13,365 bases of DNA, taken from IMG/VR virus record IMGVR_UViG_2606217105_000011; one strand, written 5' to 3'. Positions 1,762-13,365 of the stretch are shown piece by piece. This DNA is from a virus (taxonomy: Duplodnaviria > Heunggongvirae > Uroviricota > Caudoviricetes). The translations under genes were made by a program, and so were the position numbers. The notes beneath the pieces are model-generated. The model was given only the letters and a program-made list of their open reading frames with translations, searched no databases and was not told the origin of the DNA. Each line of letters opens with the position of its first letter. Within the stretch, counting starts at the first letter, position 1.

Positions 1762-2089
1762 CAATCGTTTGTTAAAAGCGTAGATAACCACTTATTCAAC
1801 AACTTGAAAATAAGGTATTTTACCTGGGTTGTTACAAAAGGATTGCATTGCGTAAACGCTTTTTATTTACAAAAAAATGGGGAAGTGTTACAGCGATTGC
1901 GAAAAGCCTGAAGCGGTTGAATTAAGATAATATAGAAAATCAGATACAGCAAAAATGGCAGATTGATCAGGTGAAGATAAATTGGAGCGGGCGAAGGGAA
2001 TCGAGGAAACCCATAATAACCTGCTGTAAAATAAAGATTTTGTGATCAATCATAGGTAACTGATTACGTGATAATAGAGGATCATTATC

Positions 2090-3310
2090 GTGTCGATCAA
2101 GAGCCAAGCATACTTATTTAAAAGAAAAGATGGGATCTGGATGTTTCAGATTTTTGTTCCTAAATACTTACGTCATCTTTACCCTTATAAGTTGTGGAGA
2201 AAAAGCACATCTACACGAGATCTGAATGAGGCGAGAAGATTCAGAAACCATCTATTATTAGAATGGGAGGAACTAAAGCGAAAACATAATCCTGATAACC
2301 CCGAAAGGAGGTTACAAAAAGCTATTGAATCCTTACATTCAGAGGCAAGGGCCAATAAAAACACGCAAAGAGCCGTAAAACGCGGTTATGCACCGCCTTC
2401 CCTGTGCCTAATACGTGACGAATACGCCGAATGCTACAGAGAGCGTCGTTCATACTCAACACTACAGAAATCAGCAAGGGCCGTTGAGCTATTTTTACAA
2501 AGCATTCAGAAAGATGATATTCATATTGAGAAAATAGGCAGACGGCTTGTAACAGTATTCTTAGATGACCAGAAGCAACGAGGAGCAGCCGATCAATCTC
2601 GTCAAAACTGGCTTACATGCTTAGGATCGCTCTATGAATTTGCTAAACGCCGTTATGACGGAATACCAGACAGTAACCCTTTTCACGGTCATAACCTCGA
2701 AGCACGTCGCACAATCGAGAGTTATCAACCGTTTACACCTGAACAAATGCAAAAGCTACTTGATGCAGCGGAGCCGGAGATCAGAAATATTATTTTAATG
2801 GGCTTGTTTTCAGGATGCAGATTAGACGAACTGGCAAGCCTGAAAAAGTCAGAGGTTGTAACTGTGGAAGGAATACGCTGTTTTTATATCAGCAAGAGTA
2901 AGACTAAAGCAGGGATCAGACACGTTCCGATACATTCGAGACTATCGATTATTGTCGATGAATATTTAAATCATAATTATGGTGAATATTTGTTCCCTCA
3001 CTCGAACAAAGTAAAAAGAATCGACGGCAAGAAAGGCCCGTTCTATTCTCAAGCATTCTCACGTTTACGTCGTAACGTCTTGCCAATCGCTACAGATAGA
3101 CAATGCTTTCACAGCTTGCGCGGGATGTTTATCACTTGTCTTGATCGTGCCGGAGTGCCTGAACAGCGGATCGGAGCCATTACCGGACATACAGAGCAGA
3201 GAGCTAAAACAGAAGCCTTTCGCACCTACTCACAAGGGGCAAGCATTCCAGAATTAGCTGAATATGTAGAATTAGTAAAATATGAATTAAATATTGATTT
3301 TAAGGCGTAA
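2090..3310 (+). CDS. int: Tyrosine-type site-specific recombinase (phage/island integrase), 406 aa, GTG start
   Basis: C-terminal catalytic signature readable in the translation: R in GCRLDELASL, K in the SKSKTKAG hairpin region, H-x-x-R in CFHSLRGMF, H in ITGHTEQ, and the nucleophile Y in FRTYSQG about 36 residues after HxxR. The N-terminal region looks like an arm-type DNA-binding domain. Upstream GAGGAT serves as an SD-like sequence. Confidence 0.85.
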   Translation: MSIKSQAYLFKRKDGIWMFQIFVPKYLRHLYPYKLWRKSTSTRDLNEARRFRNHLLLEWEELKRKHNPDNPERRLQKAIESLHSEARANKNTQRAVKRGYAPPSLCLIRDEYAECYRERRSYSTLQKSARAVELFLQSIQKDDIHIEKIGRRLVTVFLDDQKQRGAADQSRQNWLTCLGSLYEFAKRRYDGIPDSNPFHGHNLEARRTIESYQPFTPEQMQKLLDAAEPEIRNIILMGLFSGCRLDELASLKKSEVVTVEGIRCFYISKSKTKAGIRHVPIHSRLSIIVDEYLNHNYGEYLFPHSNKVKRIDGKKGPFYSQAFSRLRRNVLPIATDRQCFHSLRGMFITCLDRAGVPEQRIGAITGHTEQRAKTEAFRTYSQGASIPELAEYVELVKYELNIDFKA

Positions 3311-3335
3311 AACAACGCCATAAACGTAATAAAAA

Positions 3336-3368
3336 GGCTTCCTTGTAATGGGAGCCTCTTATATGCTT
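3336..3368. terminator. Putative bidirectional intrinsic terminator between convergent int and structural operon
   Basis: Hairpin GGCTTCC(3336..3342)-ttgtaat-GGGAGCC(3350..3356): 7 bp with one G-U wobble on the plus-strand RNA, followed by TCTTATATGCTT. On the minus-strand RNA the stem has one A-C mismatch but is followed by a UUUUUAUUAC tract. Sits in the 108-bp gap between convergent genes. Confidence 0.4.
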
Positions 3369-3417
3369 AATTCCTTACAAGAGTGTTTTAGATTGTGATT
3401 AAACATTCTCTTTATCA

Positions 3418-5259
3418 TTAACTTGGTGCTTGCCCAGACAGAGCCGCCAACGTGAAACTACGTTCAAAATCTTGTTGGATACTTCCCACTTTGTAATCGA
3501 GGTATGATCCAAGCTGACTACCATCAGGGGCGATATTCACATCCACCTTGCTTTCCGGCACGTTTACGACGATGTTCGGTGCATACGTCATAGATGGGGT
3601 AGTGTTCAGATCACGGCTAACGTTCTGTTTCAGGGATTGCACGTTATCAGATGGGCTTGCATAGTTCTGAATTGCAGTTCCGCCAGTCGTTGGCTTGTCT
3701 TCCGTGCCAGGAATAGGATCTAAGCCTAAAGCACTACGACCCCAATCAACCATACCACCTACAAACGAGTCCTTATAATACATACCGGACGAATCAAGGT
3801 TTTCATGCTTGTTCTCTGGGTTGATATTTTGGTATGCAGCAGTAAGCCACGATACAGCACCAGCAAAGGCGCTCATCATTTCAGCCGTTGAGCTTCCAAG
3901 TTCTTTAAACAGAGGATTCAAATCTTTCAACATTTGCGCCCACTCTTCACCAGCTTGAGCATCGAACTCTTCACCAAATCCAGTCATGATAGCTTTCTTA
4001 CTACCTTCCCATGCCATATTCATATTTGCCTGTACCGCTTGCAGACGTTCGGCAGCGTCCAGATCCGCTTGTGTATAGGTGGCATTGGCCTTTTGCATCT
4101 TAACGATGGTCTTGTTTAGCTCTTCACCATTACGACTAAAGGCACCACGGAAATATTGCAAATCATTGCCCAGGTCTTCAAGGATGTGCCCGATTTCTTG
4201 ATCTGATAATCCACGGCGTTCACCTTCTTTCACTACAGCGCCCAGGAAACCTAAAGGATCAGTCTGGAAACCTTTAACCTGTTCAGGTGACCAGCCATAT
4301 TTATTAAGGATGTTATCGACGGCACCATTACCGCCAGCCCAGCGACCTTTCTTAGCGTCCCATTTGGTATTCCCTACGGATTCACCTAAACGTTCCTGAA
4401 CGTCTTTAAGGTTGTCTTGACGTTGGTCTACGGAACTATCAACACCGTGTTCTAAGCCGTACTGGTTGAGAGCTAACAGGGCGTTAGTGTTTACGTTGAC
4501 AGCCTTTGCCTTGCGGTTAGTGTCTGTGATCTTGCTTGCCTGATCGGTTACGGTATTGAATATCGCAGCACCGCCGAAAGTAGCAGCAGTGAGAGCGGCA
4601 CCGCCTACCATTGCACCGACACCAGCGCCCATATGACCACCTTTAAGCTGTTTAGCCATATGTGGGTATTTACCGCCATCAGCCGCCACCTGGCGAGCTT
4701 TTACAGCAGCCGCACGGCGTTCTAACGTGATACGATCACGGATCAGGTGATTCATCTTAGCCTGGCTTATAGCGCCTTTCTCATACGCTGCCGTTTGTGC
4801 TTTGATGTATTGCAATGTTTTGTAGTACTGGGCGCTATCCATACCGTCGCCCATACGCCCTTTTTTGATGCCTTCAAGCTGTCTAAAAGCTTGCTGGCGT
4901 TTAATCTCTGCCTTCTCTGCTATTGTCGCTTTAGCGCGGATCTGTTTATCGGCAGCTATAGCGGCTTTAGCTTTCGCTTTAGCTTCTGCCTTTGCCACCT
5001 TATCAGCGTTCTTCTTGTCCGTTTGAGCTTGCTTGTCTGACGCTTTAGCATCAGCTTTAGCCTGTGTAGCTTTACGAGCCTTTACCAGATCATGAGCATC
5101 GTCTATAGCTTTTTTAGCCTTCTTCCCTTTCATCGTTGGATTGGTTAGGTTTTCCATTTCTTTTTGAAATTTCTTCCCTGCATCGCGTGCTTTCTGCAAT
5201 GATGCAAAATCAACTTTAAATACAACCTTGTTTGTTAAGGTTGAGATGTTTAAATCCAT
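3418..5259 (-). CDS. Phage structural protein, 613 aa: N-terminal Lys/Ala-rich coiled coil, central Gly-rich hydrophobic segment, large C-terminal domain (tape-measure-like, scaffold-like or internal/ejection protein; identity unresolved)
   Basis: ATG at 5259 with AAGGAAAA SD; stop 20 nt after the preceding gene. Composition features: KAKAKAAIAADKQIRAKATIAEKAEIKRQQ repeats, then GGHMGAGVGAMVGGAALTAATFGGAAIF. No motif I can assign to a named family by eye. Confidence 0.5.
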   Translation of the reverse strand: MDLNISTLTNKVVFKVDFASLQKARDAGKKFQKEMENLTNPTMKGKKAKKAIDDAHDLVKARKATQAKADAKASDKQAQTDKKNADKVAKAEAKAKAKAAIAADKQIRAKATIAEKAEIKRQQAFRQLEGIKKGRMGDGMDSAQYYKTLQYIKAQTAAYEKGAISQAKMNHLIRDRITLERRAAAVKARQVAADGGKYPHMAKQLKGGHMGAGVGAMVGGAALTAATFGGAAIFNTVTDQASKITDTNRKAKAVNVNTNALLALNQYGLEHGVDSSVDQRQDNLKDVQERLGESVGNTKWDAKKGRWAGGNGAVDNILNKYGWSPEQVKGFQTDPLGFLGAVVKEGERRGLSDQEIGHILEDLGNDLQYFRGAFSRNGEELNKTIVKMQKANATYTQADLDAAERLQAVQANMNMAWEGSKKAIMTGFGEEFDAQAGEEWAQMLKDLNPLFKELGSSTAEMMSAFAGAVSWLTAAYQNINPENKHENLDSSGMYYKDSFVGGMVDWGRSALGLDPIPGTEDKPTTGGTAIQNYASPSDNVQSLKQNVSRDLNTTPSMTYAPNIVVNVPESKVDVNIAPDGSQLGSYLDYKVGSIQQDFERSFTLAALSGQAPS

Positions 5260-5277
5260 AATATTTTCCTTTACCTT

Positions 5278-5493
5278 TTATTTATTCTGTTTTGATACGT
5301 AATATTGCACTGCTTCCATAGCGGAACAGCCTGTAGCAAAAATTCTTTGACGTACAGCGGTATTAGAGATCCCTAAAAACTTACATACTTGTGAGATATT
5401 TAGAATATCTTCCGGTAAGGTGGAAACAGCTTTCAGGATTTCAACGGGATTGTTATTTTGTGTGTTCATGGTTTTCTCACTTTTATTCGACAT
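5278..5493 (-). CDS. Small HTH DNA-binding protein (excisionase/AlpA-like or regulatory); probable true start at the internal ATG 5469 (MNTQ..., 63 aa)
   Basis: Helix-turn-helix-like segment DILNISQVCKFLGISNTAVRQRI. The internal ATG has a weak GAGAAA SD while the first ATG has none. Located between the capsid gene and the 613-aa gene in the same operon. Confidence 0.45.
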   Translation of the reverse strand: MSNKSEKTMNTQNNNPVEILKAVSTLPEDILNISQVCKFLGISNTAVRQRIFATGCSAMEAVQYYVSKQNK

Positions 5494-5613
5494 TAGAAAA
5501 CAAAAAGGGCAAAGAGATCCGTTACTGTATTTGTTTTACAGGTTAGTTAATCCCTTTTGCCCTTATTGCCTGTTTTATTTCCAGTCGCACAGGAAACGAC
5601 TATTAACGCTTTA

Positions 5614-6642
5614 TTACGCTACTGTGATCTGTACAGTGAAGCCTACGCCGTGGTTTACAACCATCTGGCTATTCTCGGTAACTACGTTTACAGCGTCGTT
5701 ACGTGCTGGGCTAAATGCATAGCTGTAATATTCAGCCGATCCAGAGTTCAGAAGGTCGAACGTTGAAGAAGGAGCGCCGAAAATGTTCTGATAGACGTTA
5801 GAGCCTTTAGCGAACTTCGGAACAGCCACCGCATCAGAAGTCATATGAGCCAGCAGCAGCGGATCGGTAACTTTGATCAGATCAATGTTAGTGCCTGGAA
5901 TAGTGAAGGTAGTCACACCTGGCAGCAGGGAGCGCACACTATAAACGATGTTTGCGTCATCGGTAGGGCTTGCATACTGGAACGCGTTAACCATGCCAGC
6001 ACTGTAACGGATAGCGTTAAATGCAGCAGGTTTACAGAATACAACGATACGCTCTACAGCAGCCGCCTGGCTTTGTGCTTTAGTAATAACGTCTGTATGC
6101 ATCTGATCGAATTGCTGGAACACCATAGAAGGCGTGGTGCTTGATGCGTCGATGGTTGCAGTCAGCGGAACAGCACTAAACAGATCGCCCCACTGAATCA
6201 GCACATCGTCAGTTTTAGGGGTGTAGGTGCGACCACTAAACAGGGAAGCAGCCAGTACGCTTTCTTTAGTACGCTGGAAAGCAATGTGGTGCTTAGCAAC
6301 ATATTCCGCGTAGATATCTGTCAGAGTCTCTTCAACGGTAGCGCCTGGTTTACGTTTGCCTTGAACGTCTTGCGGCTTAATCATATCTTCACGCAGGAAG
6401 TAGGGGATCTCTACTAAAAATTCTTTACCCTGTTCACGTTTAGTCACGTTATGTTCAGAAGAGAAACGAGAGGTTTCTTTGTTGAACAGAGATTCGTTAG
6501 TTTCCACCAGTTGGCTAACAGCCACTTTATGAGAACTCACACCTACCGGATCAGTGAAGTCCAGAGTAGTTAACAGGAAGTTGCGAGAGTCGTGCAGACT
6601 AAACAGCGGAGCCAGATCGACGGATTCATTACCAATAATCAT
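5614..6642 (-). CDS. Major capsid protein, lambda gpE-like family (342 aa)
   Basis: ATG at 6642 with AAAGGAATAAACATA upstream. Length matches lambda gpE (341 aa). By-eye colinear motif resemblance to lambda gpE: DLAPLFSL vs FDPLFLRLF near the N-terminus, IVVFCKPAAFNAI vs NIIVFDPKGWALF, DANIVYSVRS vs DVAIVVYSGQ, and C-terminal GFTVQITVA vs EFVSVQLA. Not search-verified. Confidence 0.6.
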   Translation of the reverse strand: MIIGNESVDLAPLFSLHDSRNFLLTTLDFTDPVGVSSHKVAVSQLVETNESLFNKETSRFSSEHNVTKREQGKEFLVEIPYFLREDMIKPQDVQGKRKPGATVEETLTDIYAEYVAKHHIAFQRTKESVLAASLFSGRTYTPKTDDVLIQWGDLFSAVPLTATIDASSTTPSMVFQQFDQMHTDVITKAQSQAAAVERIVVFCKPAAFNAIRYSAGMVNAFQYASPTDDANIVYSVRSLLPGVTTFTIPGTNIDLIKVTDPLLLAHMTSDAVAVPKFAKGSNVYQNIFGAPSSTFDLLNSGSAEYYSYAFSPARNDAVNVVTENSQMVVNHGVGFTVQITVA

Positions 6643-6660
6643 TATGTTTATTCCTTTATA

Positions 6661-7032
6661 TTAAGATGTGAATACAGTGTTAAAACCAGCCATCTGGAAG
6701 CCTTTAGCAGCCAGAGCAGCAATAGCGGCTTCTTTAATAGCGCCTTCAACATTCAGAGCATCAGACTTGATGCAAACCAGTCCGGCATTGCTACGCAGCA
6801 CGTTAACGGTTTTAGCGTCGCCAGCGGATACCGCATCAGACACAACCACAAGAACATCGCCGCCGCTTACATATTCAGCGCCGTTACTGGTAATCAGATC
6901 GCCGCATTCCACATCAACCGCCAGATCAACGGTAAAAGATTGCACACAACCGAACTCATCAGTTGCATAGCTCACGATATCGGTAAATGATTTGCGAACT
7001 GGAAACAGATCGCTCATATTAATAATAGCCAT
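6661..7032 (-). CDS. Small capsid-associated protein, candidate head decoration/cementing protein (123 aa)
   Basis: Positional only: encoded immediately upstream of the gpE-like capsid gene (as gpD is in lambda), has a decoration-protein size, is Gly/Ala/Val-rich, and has a strong SD (AAGGAAA). I could not see convincing sequence similarity to lambda gpD. Confidence 0.3.
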   Translation of the reverse strand: MAIINMSDLFPVRKSFTDIVSYATDEFGCVQSFTVDLAVDVECGDLITSNGAEYVSGGDVLVVVSDAVSAGDAKTVNVLRSNAGLVCIKSDALNVEGAIKEAAIAALAAKGFQMAGFNTVFTS

Positions 7033-7034
7033 AA

Positions 7035-7250
7035 TTAATAGTTTCCTTTTTTGGATTGTTTGATTTGTTCTGCTTTTGCTTTAATCAGATCCTGCATAGT
7101 AGGCTTCTGTTCATCAGCAGACTTAAAAAGCTTATCACAATGTTTTTTCAATTCTGTTGGAGTGATCCCCAACATATAAGCCGTAGCATTGAATGTTTCA
7201 TCAGTGATAATCAATTCTTCGTTACCATTCTTTAGAATGAGATTTTGCAT
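7035..7250 (-). CDS. Hypothetical small protein (71 aa), first gene of the capsid operon
   Basis: ATG at 7250 with AAAGGTAAAG upstream; its stop abuts the next gene's SD/start (7032). No recognisable motif. Confidence 0.4.
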   Translation of the reverse strand: MQNLILKNGNEELIITDETFNATAYMLGITPTELKKHCDKLFKSADEQKPTMQDLIKAKAEQIKQSKKGNY

Positions 7251-7290
7251 TGTTGCTTTACCTTTTTTCTAACGTTCTTGTTTAGTCCTG

Positions 7291-7322
7291 ATAAAATAAA
7301 ACCGGAAGGGGAAAGCTTCCGG
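7291..7322 (-). terminator. Intrinsic terminator (minus-strand orientation)
   Basis: Perfect 7-bp stem CCGGAAG(7302..7308)/CTTCCGG(7316..7322) with a 7-nt loop. On the minus-strand RNA it is followed directly by UUUUAUUUUAU (reverse complement of 7291..7301). On the plus strand the U-tract is poor. Confidence 0.6.
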
Positions 7323-7444
7323 CTTTATGGATACAAAACATATGAAGGATGCGATAGAAGTGTTACTAAATCGTATTTATATGCACTTAAAGAGGGTAGG
7401 ACATATAAGAATAAGATTGCTTATTGTTATATACCCTTGAGGGG

Positions 7445-7520
7445 TGAATAACAGGCTTACAGGGAGTAGGCGCTTAGGAGGTCGCCCCCTTTGGAGAGGA
7501 ATCTATAAACCTGTTATTCG
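7445..7520. repeat. 10-bp perfect inverted repeat (GAATAACAGG ... CCTGTTATTC) flanking a 54-bp GC-rich core; candidate RNA stem-loop or protein-binding/recombination site
   Basis: Seen: 7446..7455 is the exact reverse complement of 7510..7519. The enclosed sequence contains a GGCG...CGCC sub-hairpin and an AGGAGG motif. A 10-bp perfect inverted repeat this close together is unlikely by chance. Confidence 0.45.
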
Positions 7521-7786
7521 TGCGATGGCTAATCGCTGTCTTTCTCAATGTGGATGCATCGATCAGACTTTCAGGAATCACCTATTAACTTTCAAACCTT
7601 TTGGATTCTCATTTTAATAGGAGGCGGTGCCGAGATGATTTCGGGGATCATCCACGCATTTCGCGTTCTAAGATTGGCACCTTAATAAACACCAACAAAC
7701 AAAAAACTTATTTAGCTTTGGGCTTAATAGAAACTGTTGTCAAGAAACAGATATACACCGTTATTTGTTTATACGGGGTTTATAGA

Positions 7787-7807
7787 CACTGTAAACAGTG
7801 TTTTTAG
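7787..7807 (+). terminator. Putative intrinsic terminator (plus-strand orientation)
   Basis: ACACTG(7787..7792)-TAAA-CAGTGT(7797..7802) hairpin followed by TTTTT on the plus strand. Implies a plus-strand transcript ending here inside the ORF-poor region. Confidence 0.4.
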
Positions 7808-7825
7808 AAAGTGTTTCATGCTTCA

Positions 7826-7865
7826 CAGTTGGTTAAAAAGATGAGGGGCCAAGTCCTTAGCCCCT
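7826..7865 (-). terminator. Putative intrinsic terminator (minus-strand orientation) downstream of the small-gene operon
   Basis: Stem AGGGGC(7844..7849)/GCCCCT(7860..7865) with a 10-nt loop. On the minus-strand RNA it is followed by CUCAUCUUUUUAAC. About 265 nt downstream of the last gene of the operon (ends 8130). Confidence 0.35.
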
Positions 7866-8129
7866 GCATTCTTAAGACACAATATGATAAAGCAATAAGG
7901 AAAATAAAATGAAACTATTAACGAGGGAAACAATTTCTAAAAATCACTGTAAAGGGAAAGCGAGGCAGGTTAGATAGGGCGCGACCCCTTGAGGTCTACC
8001 CCGCTTTCGTGTAGGATTAGAATCGGTAGAAGGTTTAACGCCAGCTAACACCTGTTTTCTATTCTGCCCCCTATATTTCTTATTATATAACATTTCTGTT
8101 AGAAAGTCAATAGGTAAATCAAAGTTTTT

Positions 8130-8342
8130 TCAGTTCTTTTCGTTCGTTAACTGCCAATCACCAAATACACAATTACCATCTAAAACAATTGTTTGTTCGT
8201 TACCGTTATCATCGGTTACGTGCATCAGGCGGGTGTAATTGTCGAGATTGCCAGTGTAGATCTTGCCTACTGTGAAGCAATTACCCGCTTTGCCTTCTTC
8301 TGTGAGTGCCAGGAGGCGCACACGTTTAGTTTTTACTGTCAT
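8130..8342 (-). CDS. Hypothetical small protein (70 aa)
   Basis: Start at 8342 overlaps the stop of the upstream gene (translational coupling). Last gene of a minus-strand operon. Confidence 0.45.
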   Translation of the reverse strand: MTVKTKRVRLLALTEEGKAGNCFTVGKIYTGNLDNYTRLMHVTDDNGNEQTIVLDGNCVFGDWQLTNEKN

Positions 8343-8650
8343 TAGTTGTTAGCCTTATCGATTAGTTGTGCTATGAGTGGTTGCAAGTCTGCTACCGCTT
8401 GTTGCATGATTTCAGTGGTGTCATTGATCACGGTAATCAGGTTATTCAGATCATCAGCTTCAATCTGTGCACCTTCGGATTGTTTGCACGCTTCAATAAG
8501 CAATTGCAGTGCTTCCCGCGTCGATTCCAGATTAATAACCGCCTGTGTGATGGTCAGTTCGCTTGGAAAGGTCAGAGCCGCATTAACTGCTTTCTGTAAA
8601 GAAATAATAAGATCGTACATCTGAAGCGTTACGTTGTGTGTAGTGCTCAT
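8342..8650 (-). CDS. Hypothetical small acidic, predicted all-helical protein (102 aa)
   Basis: Start at 8650 overlaps the stop of the upstream gene. Strong excess of D/E over K/R in the translation. Confidence 0.5.
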   Translation of the reverse strand: MSTTHNVTLQMYDLIISLQKAVNAALTFPSELTITQAVINLESTREALQLLIEACKQSEGAQIEADDLNNLITVINDTTEIMQQAVADLQPLIAQLIDKANN

Positions 8651-8871
8651 TATGCCACTTCCTCTAATTGTTCTAATTGTTGTTGTGCTTCGCGTGCTTT
8701 CTTCATAGCGATAGTGAGCGGAATTTTATAAGTTGCAATGCTGTCTATAACGTCATCCAGAATTGCCAGATCGTTCTCTTCCTTTGCTCGTTCGATAATA
8801 TCTATGAAGCATTCTGAAAGAAGCTTGAGATCGTGAAAAGTGGTTGTCTCTAAAATTGCTTTGTTAATCAT
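8650..8871 (-). CDS. Hypothetical small acidic helical protein (73 aa)
   Basis: ATG at 8871 with AAAAGGAAAA SD; stop overlaps the next gene's start at 8650. Confidence 0.5.
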   Translation of the reverse strand: MINKAILETTTFHDLKLLSECFIDIIERAKEENDLAILDDVIDSIATYKIPLTIAMKKAREAQQQLEQLEEVA

Positions 8872-8912
8872 TTTATTTTCCTTTTGTTAAGGGTTATATT
8901 CATCTAATGCTG

Positions 8913-9293
8913 TTAATCGTCAATGTTTACTTTATCAAGTAGAAGTAAGTCTGTTTCTCGAACTCCTGCATATTGCAGGCTATTAAGCGCCATATACCCC
9001 CTAAAATGGGCCATGTCTGAAAATCCCAAACATTGCCATCTTTTAAGAAGACTACTATCAATGATTGTTGTTTTGCGTGGGCGTGGATTGAAGTAAACGC
9101 CAGGCATACTTTGAATGATTGATAATTCTGTGTCTGTTAATTCTGGGCTTGGTTCTTCAAGTATGAAGATCAATTCTTCGCCTGGTTCCGCATCATGCTC
9201 ATAGTTATATTTACGAGGATTGTTTAACGCATACTGATCACATGCTTCGCCAATAGTTGTTATTACGTTTTTCTTACCTTTTTTCTTGCTCAT
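8913..9293 (-). CDS. Hypothetical protein (126 aa), Lys-rich N-terminus
   Basis: ATG at 9293 with GAAGGGGAAG SD. No recognisable motif. Confidence 0.5.
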   Translation of the reverse strand: MSKKKGKKNVITTIGEACDQYALNNPRKYNYEHDAEPGEELIFILEEPSPELTDTELSIIQSMPGVYFNPRPRKTTIIDSSLLKRWQCLGFSDMAHFRGYMALNSLQYAGVRETDLLLLDKVNIDD

Positions 9294-9414
9294 TGCTTCC
9301 CCTTCGTTTTGTTTTTCTTGTTGCAGTGTTAAAAAAGGAAGCGATCATAAATACTAAGAAAAATATTAAGCTTTCCATTGTTTCACCCTTCAAGATGTTT
9401 GATAGTTGTTTGTT

Positions 9415-9633
9415 TTAAGCTACAGAGTCGATTCTGAATGCTTTCATATGAGTTTTGGTATACTGCAATAATCCTTGTTTACTTAGGCTATCGAGAAGAG
9501 CATATAAAAATTGCTCACCTACCACACCGGAAAACTCAGAATCAAACAGAATCATTCCCGTTCTTTCCCGTAAATATTGCAGAAAGGTTTCTTGTGAAAA
9601 TTCGCTATCGAATATGGTCACAGCGCCACCCAC
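9415..9633 (-). CDS. Hypothetical ORF (72 aa from a GTG start, no SD); may be the C-terminal part of a split or frameshifted gene
   Basis: Frame is open from 9651 with a GTG at 9633 and no convincing SD. It overlaps the end of the upstream ORF by 16 nt with a 34-nt two-frame-open window (9618..9651). Confidence 0.25.
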   Translation of the reverse strand: MGGAVTIFDSEFSQETFLQYLRERTGMILFDSEFSGVVGEQFLYALLDSLSKQGLLQYTKTHMKAFRIDSVA

Positions 9634-9875
9634 AATTCGAAAGGGCTTATCTCAAGCAAACGGAACGTCTGACTATTCACAGCCTCATACTTAATTACCC
9701 CAAAATGGCTCAGGTGATTTAACCAGTGCTGTGTGTGTTCTTTACTATGAGGTAACTCCTGCCAGCTGATAATCGCGGGTAGCTCATAATTGCTATCAGC
9801 AAGCTGTTTTGCCAGTGTGTAGCCGCTTTCTGTAATTTCGAATGTTCGTTTGTTTAATGTCAGGTTGTATTTCAT
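9618..9875 (-). CDS. Hypothetical protein (85 aa); possibly the N-terminal part of a frameshifted gene continued by 9415..9633
   Basis: ATG at 9875 with AAGGAGAA SD. Its frame ends at 9618 while the downstream ORF frame is already open from 9651. Confidence 0.45.
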   Translation of the reverse strand: MKYNLTLNKRTFEITESGYTLAKQLADSNYELPAIISWQELPHSKEHTQHWLNHLSHFGVIKYEAVNSQTFRLLEISPFELWVAL

Positions 9876-9887
9876 TTTTTATTCTCC

Positions 9888-10553
9888 TTAAAATGGTATT
9901 GAGTCATAGATTTCACTTTCTTTTCTCAGGGCTATCATCAGTGCATTAAAAGCATCATCTTCAAGAATTATCCTCTTCGAGGTCAGTGCACGTTTTATAA
10001 AATTTTCTGTTTCTTCTTGCATAGGCTTTTGGCTGTCTATGGAAATAAGCCATGTAAAAAGATCAGATTGTTCCGTGATTTCTGCCTGTGTTTCCTGCTC
10101 AATAGAGTGTGTCGCTTCTAACGGTTCCTGTGTTTCAGGTGCAGGCTGTTCTACGTTTACAGAGGTTTTTACGTCTTCCGGTGGTGTGATGTGTGCATCT
10201 GTAAAGGGTAATGCTTTATAGAGTGATGTTTGCCCGTCCCGTGCCTCTACAGAAAGAACACCCATATCAATAAACATATTTATAATATTACGCACCTGAC
10301 GATCACTAACCATTCCAATATTAGCTAATGTTTTTTGATTGGCGTAACATTCTTGCCCTTGTTCATTGAACCCAGCTACGTAACTGTAGATTTCAACGGC
10401 TGGAAGTGTCGCGGTGTATTCCTTACCTGACGGTGAGAACCACTTTTTAAACATCTTCAGCCATTGTTCAACTACTACATATGTTTGTTTACTATCTTTC
10501 TTATTGAGGCATTGCGCTTTTGCTTCGGCAATTGTTTTGGTGTTTTGGTTCAT
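9888..10553 (-). CDS. Winged-helix/HTH DNA-binding protein with acidic linker and C-terminal helical domain (221 aa); candidate replication initiator/replisome organiser or regulator
   Basis: ATG at 10553 with a perfect AAGGAGG SD 6 nt upstream. HTH-like segment NIGMVSDRQVRNIINMFIDMGVL; acidic E/Q/T-rich linker; C-terminal helical region. Functional call is an inference from architecture. Confidence 0.5.
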   Translation of the reverse strand: MNQNTKTIAEAKAQCLNKKDSKQTYVVVEQWLKMFKKWFSPSGKEYTATLPAVEIYSYVAGFNEQGQECYANQKTLANIGMVSDRQVRNIINMFIDMGVLSVEARDGQTSLYKALPFTDAHITPPEDVKTSVNVEQPAPETQEPLEATHSIEQETQAEITEQSDLFTWLISIDSQKPMQEETENFIKRALTSKRIILEDDAFNALMIALRKESEIYDSIPF

Positions 10554-10677
10554 TTAGTTCCTCCTTTGTAAGGACTGTAATTAGTAATTCATTAACAAGT
10601 TTTGGAATTGATTTCCCTTCTGCCTTTGCACGATTTAACAACGCGTTATAAGTTGCAGAATCAAAATTAATATTCAT
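10501..10677 (-). CDS. Ribbon-helix-helix (CopG/Arc/MetJ-like) small DNA-binding protein, 58 aa; not in the supplied ORF track
   Basis: Hand-translated from the minus strand: MNINFDSATYNALLNRAKAEGKSIPKLVNELLITVLTKEELNEPKHQNNCRSKSAMPQ. ATG at 10677 with AGGAGAAGGAG upstream. Beta-strand/helix/G-K-S turn/helix pattern typical of RHH proteins (compare CopG ...MAREMGLSKSAMISVAL...). Its 3' end overlaps the start of the 221-aa gene by 53 nt in another frame. Confidence 0.55.
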   Translation of the reverse strand: MNINFDSATYNALLNRAKAEGKSIPKLVNELLITVLTKEELNEPKHQNNCRSKSAMPQ

Positions 10678-10700
10678 TTGGTTTTCTCCTTCTCCTGTTA

Positions 10701-10883
10701 TTATTCTTTCTCTGCTTCTGCCTTACGCAGTTCATCAATAATTTTTAGTGCATCGTCAAAGCATTTTTCACGCTCTGGATAACCACAGCGCCGCGCTGTG
10801 TTCCTGTTCATCCTTACTTGATGTCGTGTTAGCTCACCTTTTTTAAATGCCTCTACGACGTGTTCCGGTGTATACCATTTCAT
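10701..10883 (-). CDS. Hypothetical small basic protein (60 aa, MKWYTPEHVV...), first gene of the small-gene operon
   Basis: ATG at 10883 with AAGGAG 7 nt upstream. The longer track ORF (to 10916) starts at a GTG with no SD. Confidence 0.45.
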   Translation of the reverse strand: MKWYTPEHVVEAFKKGELTRHQVRMNRNTARRCGYPEREKCFDDALKIIDELRKAEAEKE

Positions 10884-11867
10884 AAAAAACTCCTTATTTA
10901 GATAAAAGAAAAACACACCTTGCAGCCTGACGGCTCAAAGTGCAGTGTTCTGTGATTTGATTATTTAGATGGAGAGAGATGTTTCTCCCCTCCCTACTTA
11001 CAATACTACATAACGGCGGCTTTGTCAACCCTCTTTTATAAAAAATCTGATCATTTTCAATTTCTTATAATTTTTCTTAGCTTTTTGTGCTGCATACTCT
11101 GGTACAATTCTTCCCTGTTGTCTAAAACGCTCTCAATCGCACTCTGACGGGGTTTTGATAAAAACAATACATTCCCTTATGTAGAGGTTGTTTATCTCGT
11201 CGGAGGCTTATTTAAGGGGCTTATTTTTGATTTATCAGATGATGGAAAGATGGTGGATAGATAAACTCTGATTTCAGACATCTTATAAAATACCTGCAAA
11301 GTTCTCAGAAGCTCTGTAACGAGCTAATCTATTACCGCTAAGGTGTTTCCCTTACATTACCCTGTTTAGCTCGCCTACGGCTTGATTTAAGCGGTAGAAT
11401 CTTATTTAACCTTCAACTACAAAAACCATTCTTTCTTTTTTGTTGTTGGTTGTTTTGTCATGTTATGCGTTAGCATCCCCAAAGGGTAACGCGACACTAA
11501 CAACCATTCGCTTACGCTCAGGTTATTGCACAAGTAAATTTCAATCGTTAGATGGTAGTTAGTTAATTATCGTTCTGCGCACAGCGCAAGACTATTAGCC
11601 ATACGCAAGCCGTAGGCTATTTGCACATAGTAGATTACATATTCGTTGTGAGCGGAAAGCGAACATAGATCAGCTAACTACTAACAAAAAACAAAAAACA
11701 AAAACTATCTGTTATGACAAGCATCAGTCTAACTTGTGCAAGGTTCTGGCGAATGCCAATAGATTAAGGGATAGTCGAAGACTCCCTAACGGGTATCCCT
11801 ATAATTATTCTTTAAAAGATAAAAGAATTTATAAAAGATAGTTTAATTGTAGTTTAATTATAGTATT

Positions 11868-11919
11868 GTAGGAACTCATTTCCTGGGTAGGTAGGAACTC
11901 ATTTCCTGGGTAGGTAGGG
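11868..11919. repeat. Tandem direct repeat, 2 copies of a 23-bp unit GTAGGAACTCATTTCCTGGGTAG plus a partial third copy; each unit contains the palindrome AGGAA-N5-TTCCT
   Basis: Seen: 11868..11890 and 11891..11913 are identical, followed by GTAGGG. Internal inverted repeat AGGAA(11870..11874)/TTCCT(11880..11884). Lies in a 1.2-kb ORF-free region. Iteron/operator-like. Confidence 0.7.
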
Positions 11920-12181
11920 AAACCGCACTATACACTGGTAAGTGTCTTGCACAGAAAAAGGTATCAAAAATGTCTAAAGCCCCTTTAGATAAAAATGATA
12001 CCTTTATACATGCGCTAATAGCGCGCATAACAATAACCTACTAACAACTAACTAACTAAAAAGTAAGAAGATGTTGTTATGATTAGTGTATCGCTCAACG
12101 CTCACATCTATCTCTGATCTATAAATTGGTAACTGTCTAACAACAACAAACTGATCCTACCCACGTAATATGGACACAGGC

Positions 12182-13048
12182 CTAAGCGAGGTTCTGGTTT
12201 TCAAATTGTTCCGGACTGAGGCCGCCACACCAACTGTGCCGCCGCCACCGATTGTAATCACATTCGATATAATTAAACACCGTTGCCCGCATTATTTCCC
12301 GGCTGATAAAGTGTTCTCCATGGATACATTCCACTTTCAGCGAATGAAAGAAGCTTTCCACGCAGGCATTATCGTAGCAGCAACCTTTTGCGCTCATACT
12401 TCCACGCAGATTATGCCGCTTCAGTTGCGCCTGATAATCTGCTGAACAGTACTGGCCTCCACGGTCCGTGTGAACGATAACGTTCCGGGGCCTCTTACGC
12501 CGCCACAGCGCCATCTGCAGGGCATCGCAGGCCAGTTGCGCCGTCATGCGTGGCGACATTGACCAGCCAATAACGGCACGTGACCACAGGTCAATGACCA
12601 CTGCCAGATACAGCCAGCCTTCATCTGTACGTAAGTACGTGATGTCTCCTGCCCACTTCTGGTTCGGGCCACTGGCGTAAAAATCCTGCTCCAACAGATT
12701 TTCTGACACAGGCAGGCCGTGTGCGCGGTAGCTGACCGGGCTGAACTTCCGGGAGGCCTTTGCCCTCAGTCCCTGACGGCGCAGGCTTGCCGCCACGGTT
12801 TTTACGTTAAAGGGGTAACCCTGAGCACGCAGTTCATCCGTCAGGCGTGGGGCACCGTAACGCTGTTTTGACCGGGTAAAAGCCGCGAGGACAACGCTGT
12901 CGCAGTGTTGGCGGAACTGCTGACGCGTGCTTATCCTTGTCCGCCGCTGACACCACGTATACCAGCCGCTGCGGGCCACCCGGAGCACGCGGCACATTGC
13001 TTTGATGCTGAACTCAGCCTGATGTTTTTCAATAAAGACATACTTCAT
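12182..13048 (-). CDS. insF: IS3 transposase OrfB (InsF-like, DDE)
   Basis: Translation identical to the 318..1184 ORF. Confidence 0.92.
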
Positions 13049-13344
13049 TTCAGGCGCTTCGCGAAGTATGTCGCGGCCTTTTGGAGGATAGCCAGCTCTT
13101 CATCCCGTTCTGCCAGCTGGCGTTTGAGACGTGCAATCTCGGTAGACATCTCCAGTTCACGTTCAGAAGACGTCTGCTGATTTTGCTGTTTACTGCGCCA
13201 GTTGTAGAGCTGTGATTCATACAGGCTGAGTTCACGGGCTGCGGCAGTAACACCGATGCGTTCAGCAAGCTTCAGGGCTTCACTGCGAAATTCAGGCGAA
13301 TGCTGTTTACGGGGTTTTTTACTGGTTGATACTGTTTTTGTCAT
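13045..13344 (-). CDS. insE: IS3 transposase OrfA (InsE-like)
   Basis: Translation identical to copy A orfA; ATG start placed at the mirrored position of 22. Confidence 0.92.
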
Positions 13345-13365
13345 GTGAGTCACCTCTGACTGAGA

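Follow-up and report, generated by a model that had tools for sequence, protein, structure and literature searches.

What role can be ascribed to four small consecutive genes that lie at positions 8130-9293 of the virus record IMGVR_UViG_2606217105_000011? An earlier note on this stretch of 13,365 nucleotides (nt), hereafter the window, which is the whole of the DNA that was analysed, had seen in them a translationally coupled cassette of small acidic helical proteins of a phage, with the composition of DNA-mimic anti-restriction proteins or other counter-defence factors. The setting proved different: the cassette belongs to a satellite-like island related to the Stephanstirmvirinae, and not to a phage. 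We do not think that it acts as DNA mimics against restriction. We propose tentatively, and with somewhat less than even confidence, that the four genes encode element-specific factors that would bind helper-phage or host proteins during a hijack, perhaps with the control of the late operon of the element among their tasks.

A cassette of real genes with variable membership

The four genes are o126 (8913..9293, 126 amino acids (aa)), o73 (8650..8871, 73 aa), o102 (8342..8650, 102 aa) and o70 (8130..8342, 70 aa), each of them a minus-strand gene with an ATG start. Their number, sizes, positions and common strand, as first described from the sequence, are borne out by the list of open reading frames (ORFs) and by RefSeq. 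The two overlapping stop/start junctions are also as described, both being a one-base TAATG overlap, at 8650 between o73 and o102 (GCATAATGAGC) and at 8342 between o102 and o70 (AACTAATGACA). A purine-rich, Shine-Dalgarno-like stretch is found 5-10 nt upstream of all four starts, and the PGAP annotation of the RefSeq genomes gives the same four coding sequences. The ORFs are more than chance, because their homologues keep length and frame and because the mean pairwise ratio of non-synonymous to synonymous substitution rates (dN/dS), calculated over 7-9 islands, is 0.12 for o126, 0.16 for o73, 0.18 for o102 and 0.15 for o70. All four are thus real genes under purifying selection.

The comparison set comprised 22 relatives of the island in Escherichia coli, which represent three integrase/site types, two classes of major capsid protein (MCP), two classes of tape-measure-like protein (TMP) and several replication modules. 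Within this set, the cassette of four is heterogeneous in its membership, since o73 and o102 are present in 22/22 relatives, o126 in 21/22 and o70 in 10/22. Among 5,426 complete E. coli genomes, the window type of the cassette occurs in 71 and the other type in 284.

The acidic pair o73 and o102

The constant core of the cassette in the E. coli islands is the pair formed by o73 and o102, the genes in these two slots being always adjacent in all 22 relatives, with a stop/start overlap of 1 or 4 nt. Of the four genes, o102 is the one kept most widely. The description of two of the proteins as strongly acidic holds for their isoelectric points (pI) and for the persistence of the character, and is overstated for the composition of o102. 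The o73 protein has a pI of 4.49, a net charge of -7 and 20.5% aspartate plus glutamate, or about -0.10 net charge per residue; o102 has a pI of 4.08, a net charge of -9 and only 12.7% of these two residues (-0.09 net charge per residue), so that it is acidic mainly because it contains few basic residues. The acidity is kept in all divergent alleles, with net charges of -6 to -9 in the o73 family and of -9 to -15 in the o102 family, the charge density of o102 alleles reaching -0.15 per residue.

The helical character that had been predicted for the pair is supported for o102, of which the AlphaFold2 model (mean pLDDT 75, pTM 0.56) is a three-helix bundle (residues 3-27, 31-57 and 65-101) with few charged residues, distributed across all three helices on their outer faces. 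For o73, it was judged by crude propensity and amphipathicity, according to which the protein is probably helical. The possibility that the two proteins are paralogues was considered and rejected (hhalign E=0.53).

Both families have a narrow distribution. In a collection of 5.8 billion proteins, 90 homologues of o102 (62-100% identity) and 22 of o73 (77-99% identity) were found, and all of those with a named source come from Escherichia for o102 and from E. coli for o73. When each protein was compared by tblastn with 50,697 phage records, nothing was obtained at E<0.01, and a profile scan of viral contigs with the o102 alignment gave no match, the confirmation step of that scan using the window allele, which is too distant from the third o102 class. 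The alleles themselves are deeply divided. A second class of o73, detected by phmmer in the same slot, is 67 aa long, against 73-76 aa for the first, and about 28% identical to it, and o102 falls into three classes separated by 26-29% and about 62% identity. RefSeq names are misleading here, as 'ABC transporter ATPase' is the name given to the o73 allele of 67 aa (L007 9513-9716; L008 9200-9403).

In the distant islands L033-L049, of which the MCP is 52-79% identical to that of the window, the o73/o102 pair is replaced by one acidic, helical ORF (about 112 aa; e.g. L038 9386-9751), which overlaps the end of a gene of the o126 family. Its alignment with the o102 family (hhalign E=0.004 over 80 columns) is only suggestive of a remote o102 homologue.

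The partner genes o126 and o70

The o126 protein has a pI of 5.2 in the window, and its alleles range from 5.2 to 9.6, most of them being basic (7.9-9.6). Its N-terminus is rich in lysine and arginine and is accompanied by the conserved core PGE..I.E..SP.L..E.E...GVYFKPRxRK...WQxLGF. There are 29 close homologues, those of E. coli being 83-98% identical, and an exhaustive search with a hidden Markov model returned 22 clusters at E<1e-3, all of 60-135 aa with the exception of one weak match of 327 aa. Four of 17 family members match phrog_5488, a family of which the function is not annotated, and no member has a match in Pfam. Neither o126 nor one distant relative of it had a tblastn match in the 50,697 phage records. 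The AlphaFold2 model, built on a shallow alignment, has a pLDDT of 38.7 and gives no usable fold. The allele classes of o126 are about 46% identical and mostly basic. By its sequence properties and its presence in nearly all the relatives, o126 can be described as a frequently associated, mostly basic partner family of o73 and o102.

The remaining gene, o70, is of a different kind. Its product is near-neutral (pI 5.65) and, judged by sequence, probably not helical. The statement that none of the four proteins matches a family that can be named is valid for o126, o73 and o102, for which there was also no match in PHROGs, and not for o70, of which residues 1-64 align with positions 1-63 of 65 of the profile phrog_27862 (E=1.6e-14). 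The protein is 44% identical to gp032 of phAPEC8, with tblastn matches in 71 of the 50,697 phage records. The match to phrog_27862 and gp032 is full length; in the phage, the gene has other small early genes for neighbours and lies upstream of the helicase, whereas the island copy is optional and closes the early operon. On this homology, o70 is an optional gene shared with the early region of Phapecoctavirus, the presumed helper.

A satellite-like island related to Stephanstirmvirinae

The DNA of the window is chromosomal, from E. coli, and carries an insert of about 10 kb (1800-12170). All island genes except the tyrosine integrase (2090..3310, plus strand; Pfam Phage_integrase 1.3e-12, phrog_1 2e-38) lie on the minus strand. 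The structural operon (3418..7250) begins with o71a (7035-7250), followed by o123 (6661-7032), a protein of 123 aa that occupies the position of a decoration protein, by the MCP (5614-6642; Pfam Phage_cap_E 1.7e-10), by o71c (5278-5493), a helix-turn-helix (HTH) protein, and by the TMP (3418-5259; phrog_16051, 2e-67). A replication-initiator-like HTH protein, o221 (9888-10553), matches HTH_36 (1.1e-4) and phrog_270, 'replication initiation' (6.8e-6). No terminase, portal, protease, sheath or baseplate protein was detected by Pfam and PHROGs among the window proteins scanned. The island thus combines an integrase, a Rep-like HTH protein, an MCP and a TMP with an incomplete set of virion genes.

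The best phage matches of the MCP and TMP are in Stephanstirmvirinae, the phAPEC8/phi92-like myoviruses of about 150 kb. Identity to their proteins is about 25% for the MCP over its full length and about 31% for the C-terminal 380 aa of the TMP (~1e-45). Relatives of the island have in addition a distal-tail (Dit)-like gene; its counterpart in Phapecoctavirus anhysbys, at 49% identity, comes next after the tape-measure gene. Two stretches, at 10198-10458 in o221 and at 10525-10691 in o58, share 90-95% nucleotide identity with early genes of Justusliebigvirus (muut gp094; PaulScherrer bas60_0101), which implies a recent exchange of genes between the island and lytic phages. For the MCP, the TMP, the Dit-like gene of the relatives, o70, o58 and part of o221, Stephanstirmvirinae are the best or the only phage match. 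Such matches show that the island is related to these phages, and not that it depends on them.

In 53 complete E. coli genomes the island of the window has a coverage of 80% or more and lies in the ETT2/tRNA-Gly region, and some relatives have a different integrase and a site next to rluB. Many homologues are found on stand-alone contigs of 13.2-14.6 kb. One relative, L032, is an integrase-less circle of 13,636 bp with a terminal overlap of 30 nt, its junction being spanned by a second contig (L031), and L006 is circularly permuted. The extrachromosomal circular form is therefore established for relatives and not for the window copy; it is absent from PLSDB. From the gene content, the phage kinship and the existence of integrated and circular forms, we infer a phage-satellite-like island of 10-14.6 kb, tied to Stephanstirmvirinae.

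This island resembles the capsid-forming phage-inducible chromosomal islands (cf-PICIs) in being a chromosomal island of similar size with its own MCP. It differs from them in that no portal, protease, head-tail connector or small terminase was detected by Pfam and PHROGs among the window proteins scanned, in having a TMP and, in relatives, a distal-tail protein, and in the resemblance of its structural genes to a lytic myovirus lineage. As regards P4-like satellites, Psu, Sid, Delta, the Alpha primase-helicase and Epsilon were not found by Pfam or PHROGs among the same proteins. Literature searches returned no published description of the element or of the four genes, and the host element, with its combination of capsid and tape-measure genes of a lytic myovirus lineage, appears to be undescribed.

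A proposed role in the hijack of a helper phage

We propose that the cassette products would bind proteins of the helper phage or of the host during the hijack. This binding may redirect or inhibit a function of the helper or, alternatively, may switch on the element's own late operon, which follows directly after them, beyond a strong promoter and two terminators. The proposal is based on the restriction of the genes to one island family, on the acidic pair as a constant core, on the position at the end of the early operon beside the late control region, on the sharing of o70 with the presumed helper and on the diversity of the alleles. The confinement of o73 and o102 to Escherichia and their absence from phage records fit an element-specific role better than a general anti-defence role. 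The looser host-takeover function that the earlier note had offered as an alternative would be in keeping with this proposal.

Small satellite proteins of known function mostly bind helper proteins, as do Ppi and PtiA of the Staphylococcus aureus pathogenicity islands (SaPIs), Rpp from E. coli phage-inducible chromosomal islands (PICIs), Epsilon and Sid of P4 and TcaP of the PICI-like elements (PLEs). The cassette resembles satellite effectors (Ppi, PtiA and CpmB of SaPIs, Rpp of PICIs, Epsilon, Delta and Sid of P4, TcaP and CapR of PLEs) in consisting of small genes between the replication and the packaging or capsid modules, in belonging to no wider family, in the likely action of its products as protein-protein effectors and in the occurrence of its variants in both integrated and episomal elements. 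It differs from them in that our searches gave no sequence, profile or fold similarity to any. The presumed helper would be a virulent myovirus of about 150 kb and not a temperate phage, and in that one respect the element is like PLE with ICP1. As families the cassette proteins are orphans, and the kind to which they would belong, that of small effector genes in phage satellites, is known.

In a more specific form, which we regard as possible but doubtful, the cassette would be the helper-recognition or hijack module of an undescribed family of E. coli satellites parasitising virulent Stephanstirmvirinae of about 150 kb, with o73/o102 and o126 serving as inhibitors or adaptors and the allele classes tracking variants of the helper.

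Several points weigh against a hijack function. No binding partner, phenotype or structural analogue among known hijack proteins was found, and the three-helix bundle of o102 is uninformative on function. The satellite behaviour of the element is itself deduced from its gene content, and no publication on it was found. The allele classes of o73, o102 and o126 combine freely, which weakens the idea of a tightly co-evolving complex, and the islands L005 and L008 retain the acidic pair without o126. Finally, the deep alleles could reflect plain mosaic ancestry and not an arms race, because dN/dS is not elevated.

Transcription layout and possible control of the late operon

The position of the cassette relative to the capsid genes was analysed with a consensus scan for promoters and terminators, of which all the sites given here are predictions. 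Only three promoter-like sites were found on the minus strand (11136..11107, 11028..11000 and 8110..8082). The second is an early, sigma-70-like promoter with 10/12 consensus matches (TTGACA-17-TATTGT); the third, here called the gap promoter, is strong and sigma-70-like (TTGACT-17-TATAAT) and lies 20 nt past the stop of o70. No terminator-like site was present in the scan on the minus strand between 11000 and 8130, and the only one on that strand is a hairpin that follows the leader at 7865..7844. The first two promoters being upstream of o71b and no terminator occurring before 7865..7844, the four genes are predicted to be the last genes of an early replication operon, co-transcribed, by this layout, with the replication genes. 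The stretch from the gap promoter to the hairpin (7844..8110) would mark the 3' boundary of that operon. Upstream of the cassette, this predicted operon would contain o72 (9415-9633), o85 (9618-9875), o221, the ribbon-helix-helix-like o58 (10501-10677) and o71b (10701-10916), all on the minus strand, the start of o71b in PGAP being an internal ATG.

Between o70 and the capsid operon lies an ORF-poor gap of about 880 nt (7251-8129) that carries conserved sequence blocks. The gap promoter and the first bases of the leader are conserved in all island subfamilies. A second hairpin with a U-run, also terminator-like, is located at 7328..7296 on the minus strand, 45 nt before the capsid operon (minimum free energy -18 kcal/mol, z = -4.5 versus shuffles). 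The terminator position appears to be conserved across the subfamilies; the others have, judged by eye, a hairpin and T-run of different sequence at the position of 7296..7328. The gap region gave no Rfam match, and the initial 150 nt of the leader showed no consensus RNA fold. The capsid operon is thus predicted to form a unit of its own, preceded by a near-consensus promoter and two terminators, a layout that suggests a short leader RNA and the control of late genes by antitermination.

It can be hypothesised from this arrangement that the cassette products regulate the late operon or a lifecycle switch, as activator, antiterminator, anti-repressor or RNA-polymerase-binding factor, the basic o126 family binding nucleic acids and the acidic proteins acting as modulators. 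The four genes are the last early genes directly upstream of the near-consensus promoter, the two hairpins and the capsid genes, which recalls the Q-pR'-tR' region of lambda, where the small nin genes likewise follow the replication genes and precede a strong promoter and one or more terminators ahead of the late structural genes. The lysine/arginine-rich N-terminus and the conserved basic motif of o126 would suit such a role, and the succession of a basic o126-family gene and an overlapping acidic gene is kept even in distant islands. However, there is no Q-like or Nin-like homology in the island, and antitermination would be an extrapolation from the layout. No DNA-binding or Q-like domain was detected with Pfam and NCBIfam, the model of o126 has a low confidence, L005 and L008 retain the promoter-terminator region without o126, and the gap is only about 330 nt in distant islands. 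A purely regulatory role is in our view unlikely, and we retain late-operon control as a possible part of the hijack proposal.

Two short motifs were also recorded. In phAPEC8, GTAGGGCGGCAATGGTGCCGC follows early promoters (L023 556-575, 1787-1806 and 3202-3221), and the gap promoter of the island is followed by TAGGGGGCAGAAT (~8074-8062), which is conserved in all subfamilies and bears a weak likeness to GTAGGGCGGCAATGGTGCCGC.

Allelic diversity and a possible role in morphogenesis

The cassette segment diverges far more than its surroundings. Within pairs of islands, the synonymous divergence (dS) is 0.48-0.68 for the four genes, against 0.09-0.20 for the capsid genes and about 0 for o221 and o71b; this excess in otherwise near-identical islands indicates that the cassette segment is a hotspot of recombination or of deep alleles. 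The allele classes are only 26-30% identical to each other, and the two MCP classes 18-19%.

This pattern bears on the proposal that the acidic helical proteins are morphogenetic helpers of the element's own MCP or TMP, acting in scaffolding, size determination or as chaperones (compare phi29 gp7, SaPI CpmB and tail assembly chaperones). Internal scaffolding is a typical task of small, acidic, helical proteins, the element has an MCP gene and no recognisable scaffold or protease, and the cassette is found between the replication and capsid modules. The pairwise distances of o102 also correlate moderately with those of the TMP and o71c (rho 0.65-0.67), but the link between o102 class and TMP class is broken by L032, which pairs a window-class cassette with the other TMP class. 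The allele classes do not follow the capsid type either: the distances of the cassette genes correlate with those of the MCP at a rho of only 0.13-0.28, and the same class of o73, o102 and o126 is combined with MCPs 18-19% identical to each other (L006 and L032 versus the window). The allele classes therefore shuffle independently of the capsid class. Moreover, the gap of about 880 nt, with its promoter and two terminators, places the cassette in a different transcription unit from the capsid. This separate unit and the absence of co-variation with the MCP speak against a scaffold role, and we judge the morphogenetic explanation distinctly improbable. A better candidate for a scaffold is o71a, since its distances do co-vary with those of the MCP (rho 0.82). 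A 66-aa protein similar to o71a (L008 7648-7848) bears another misleading RefSeq name, 'ACP S-malonyltransferase'.

Possible anti-defence and toxin-antitoxin functions

According to the anti-defence explanation, o73, o102 or both would mimic DNA, or inhibit restriction, CRISPR or other host immunity in some other way, and so shield the element or its helper when a new cell is entered. Both proteins are indeed small, acidic in every allele and, by position, early-expressed, as are Ocr/ArdA, Ugi and some anti-CRISPRs; o102 is all-helical like Ocr, and the rapid allelic diversification would also suit an arms race with defences. The tests of this idea, however, all failed to support it. The four proteins have no match at E<=1 in Pfam, NCBIfam or PADLOC, and Ocr, ArdA, ArdB/KlcA, Acr and other anti-defence families gave no Pfam, NCBIfam, PHROG or PADLOC match to any of them at that threshold; the profile searches that the earlier note had suggested against anti-restriction and anti-CRISPR families were thus negative. 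Sequence and profile searches of the PDB with the four families, including combined divergent alleles, returned only chance or low-complexity matches. The structure prediction that had been advised as a test of mimicry did give the o102 bundle, for which Foldseek found at best E=0.2 in the PDB and 0.07 in BFVD, the top matches being generic helical bundles (designed coiled coils, MIT domains and HEPN helices), with no Ocr, ArdA or other DNA mimic among the PDB matches listed.

The charge density is less clear-cut. DNA mimics are roughly 20-30% aspartate plus glutamate and carry about -0.15 to -0.25 net charges per residue. The values of o102 and o73 do not reach those of Ocr and ArdA, and only the weakest small mimics have comparable ones. 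The o73 protein is borderline, close to the lower limit for small mimics like Ugi, whereas o102 is much lower, its few acidic residues being spread over three helices. The distribution is also unlike that of known anti-restriction genes, which are widespread across many plasmids and phages, the o73 and o102 families being confined to one island family in Escherichia, of which they are core and not accessory genes. We consider an anti-defence function to be quite improbable. Conversely, none of the four proteins could be assigned to an ordinary structural or regulatory phage family, and their conservation is clear; neither of the outcomes that the earlier note had named as refuting its reading was observed.

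A toxin-antitoxin or abortive-infection module, in which a basic o126 toxin and one or more acidic antitoxins would stabilise the element or kill helper-infected cells, could be suggested by the complementary charges of the o126 family, which is mostly basic, and of the acidic gene or genes downstream, by their translational coupling and by the defence cargo that satellites often carry, but it is very improbable given that no toxin or antitoxin domain was found in PADLOC, Pfam or NCBIfam, that the window's own o126 is acidic (pI 5.2) and that the acidic pair persists without o126 in L005 and L008.

Other features of the island and its flanks

The island is bracketed by two identical copies of an IS3-family insertion sequence (13-1184 and 12182-13353; NF033516, 3e-101), inverted with respect to each other, an arrangement reminiscent of a composite transposon. 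Directly beside the left copy lies a truncated gene of glycoside hydrolase family 15 (1198-1791), which encodes 197 aa, versus 381-536 aa elsewhere. The upstream gene o72, of 72 aa, has a weak match to the C-terminal part of BREX BrxA (PADLOC, 6.8e-4 over 45 residues), which is the sole PADLOC match in the region.

Upstream of the early promoter, 1.25 kb (10917-12170) are devoid of credible ORFs and contain an exact tandem repeat of 23 nt at 11868-11913 (GTAGGAACTCATTTCCTGGGTAG twice) and several inverted repeats. Such a composition suggests that this stretch may hold an operator, iterons or an origin. In strain 95NR1, the equivalent stretch is about 2.3 kb long and unannotated.

Some relatives (L006, and L031 and L032 in their accessory regions) carry further genes. 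One encodes a protein of 250 aa with weak similarity to Pfam CapR (L006 7633-8385), CapR being the PLE repressor of helper capsid genes. Another, in a variable region near the integrase end, belongs to the Imm_superinfect family (L006 1920-2195).

Significance for E. coli and its phages

The interest of the finding comes mostly from the context of the element, the functional claim on the four genes being speculative. If the cassette proteins proved to be anti-defence factors after all, they would be new families. The four genes are the conserved part of the element to which no role has been assigned, and they are therefore the first place in which to seek the sensing, redirection or inhibition of a helper. 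Lytic coliphages of the phAPEC8 and phi92 types have a broad host range and are frequently discussed for use in therapy. Should the element exploit or block them, E. coli would have in it a counterpart of the Vibrio PLE-ICP1 system, and phage susceptibility a hidden determinant.

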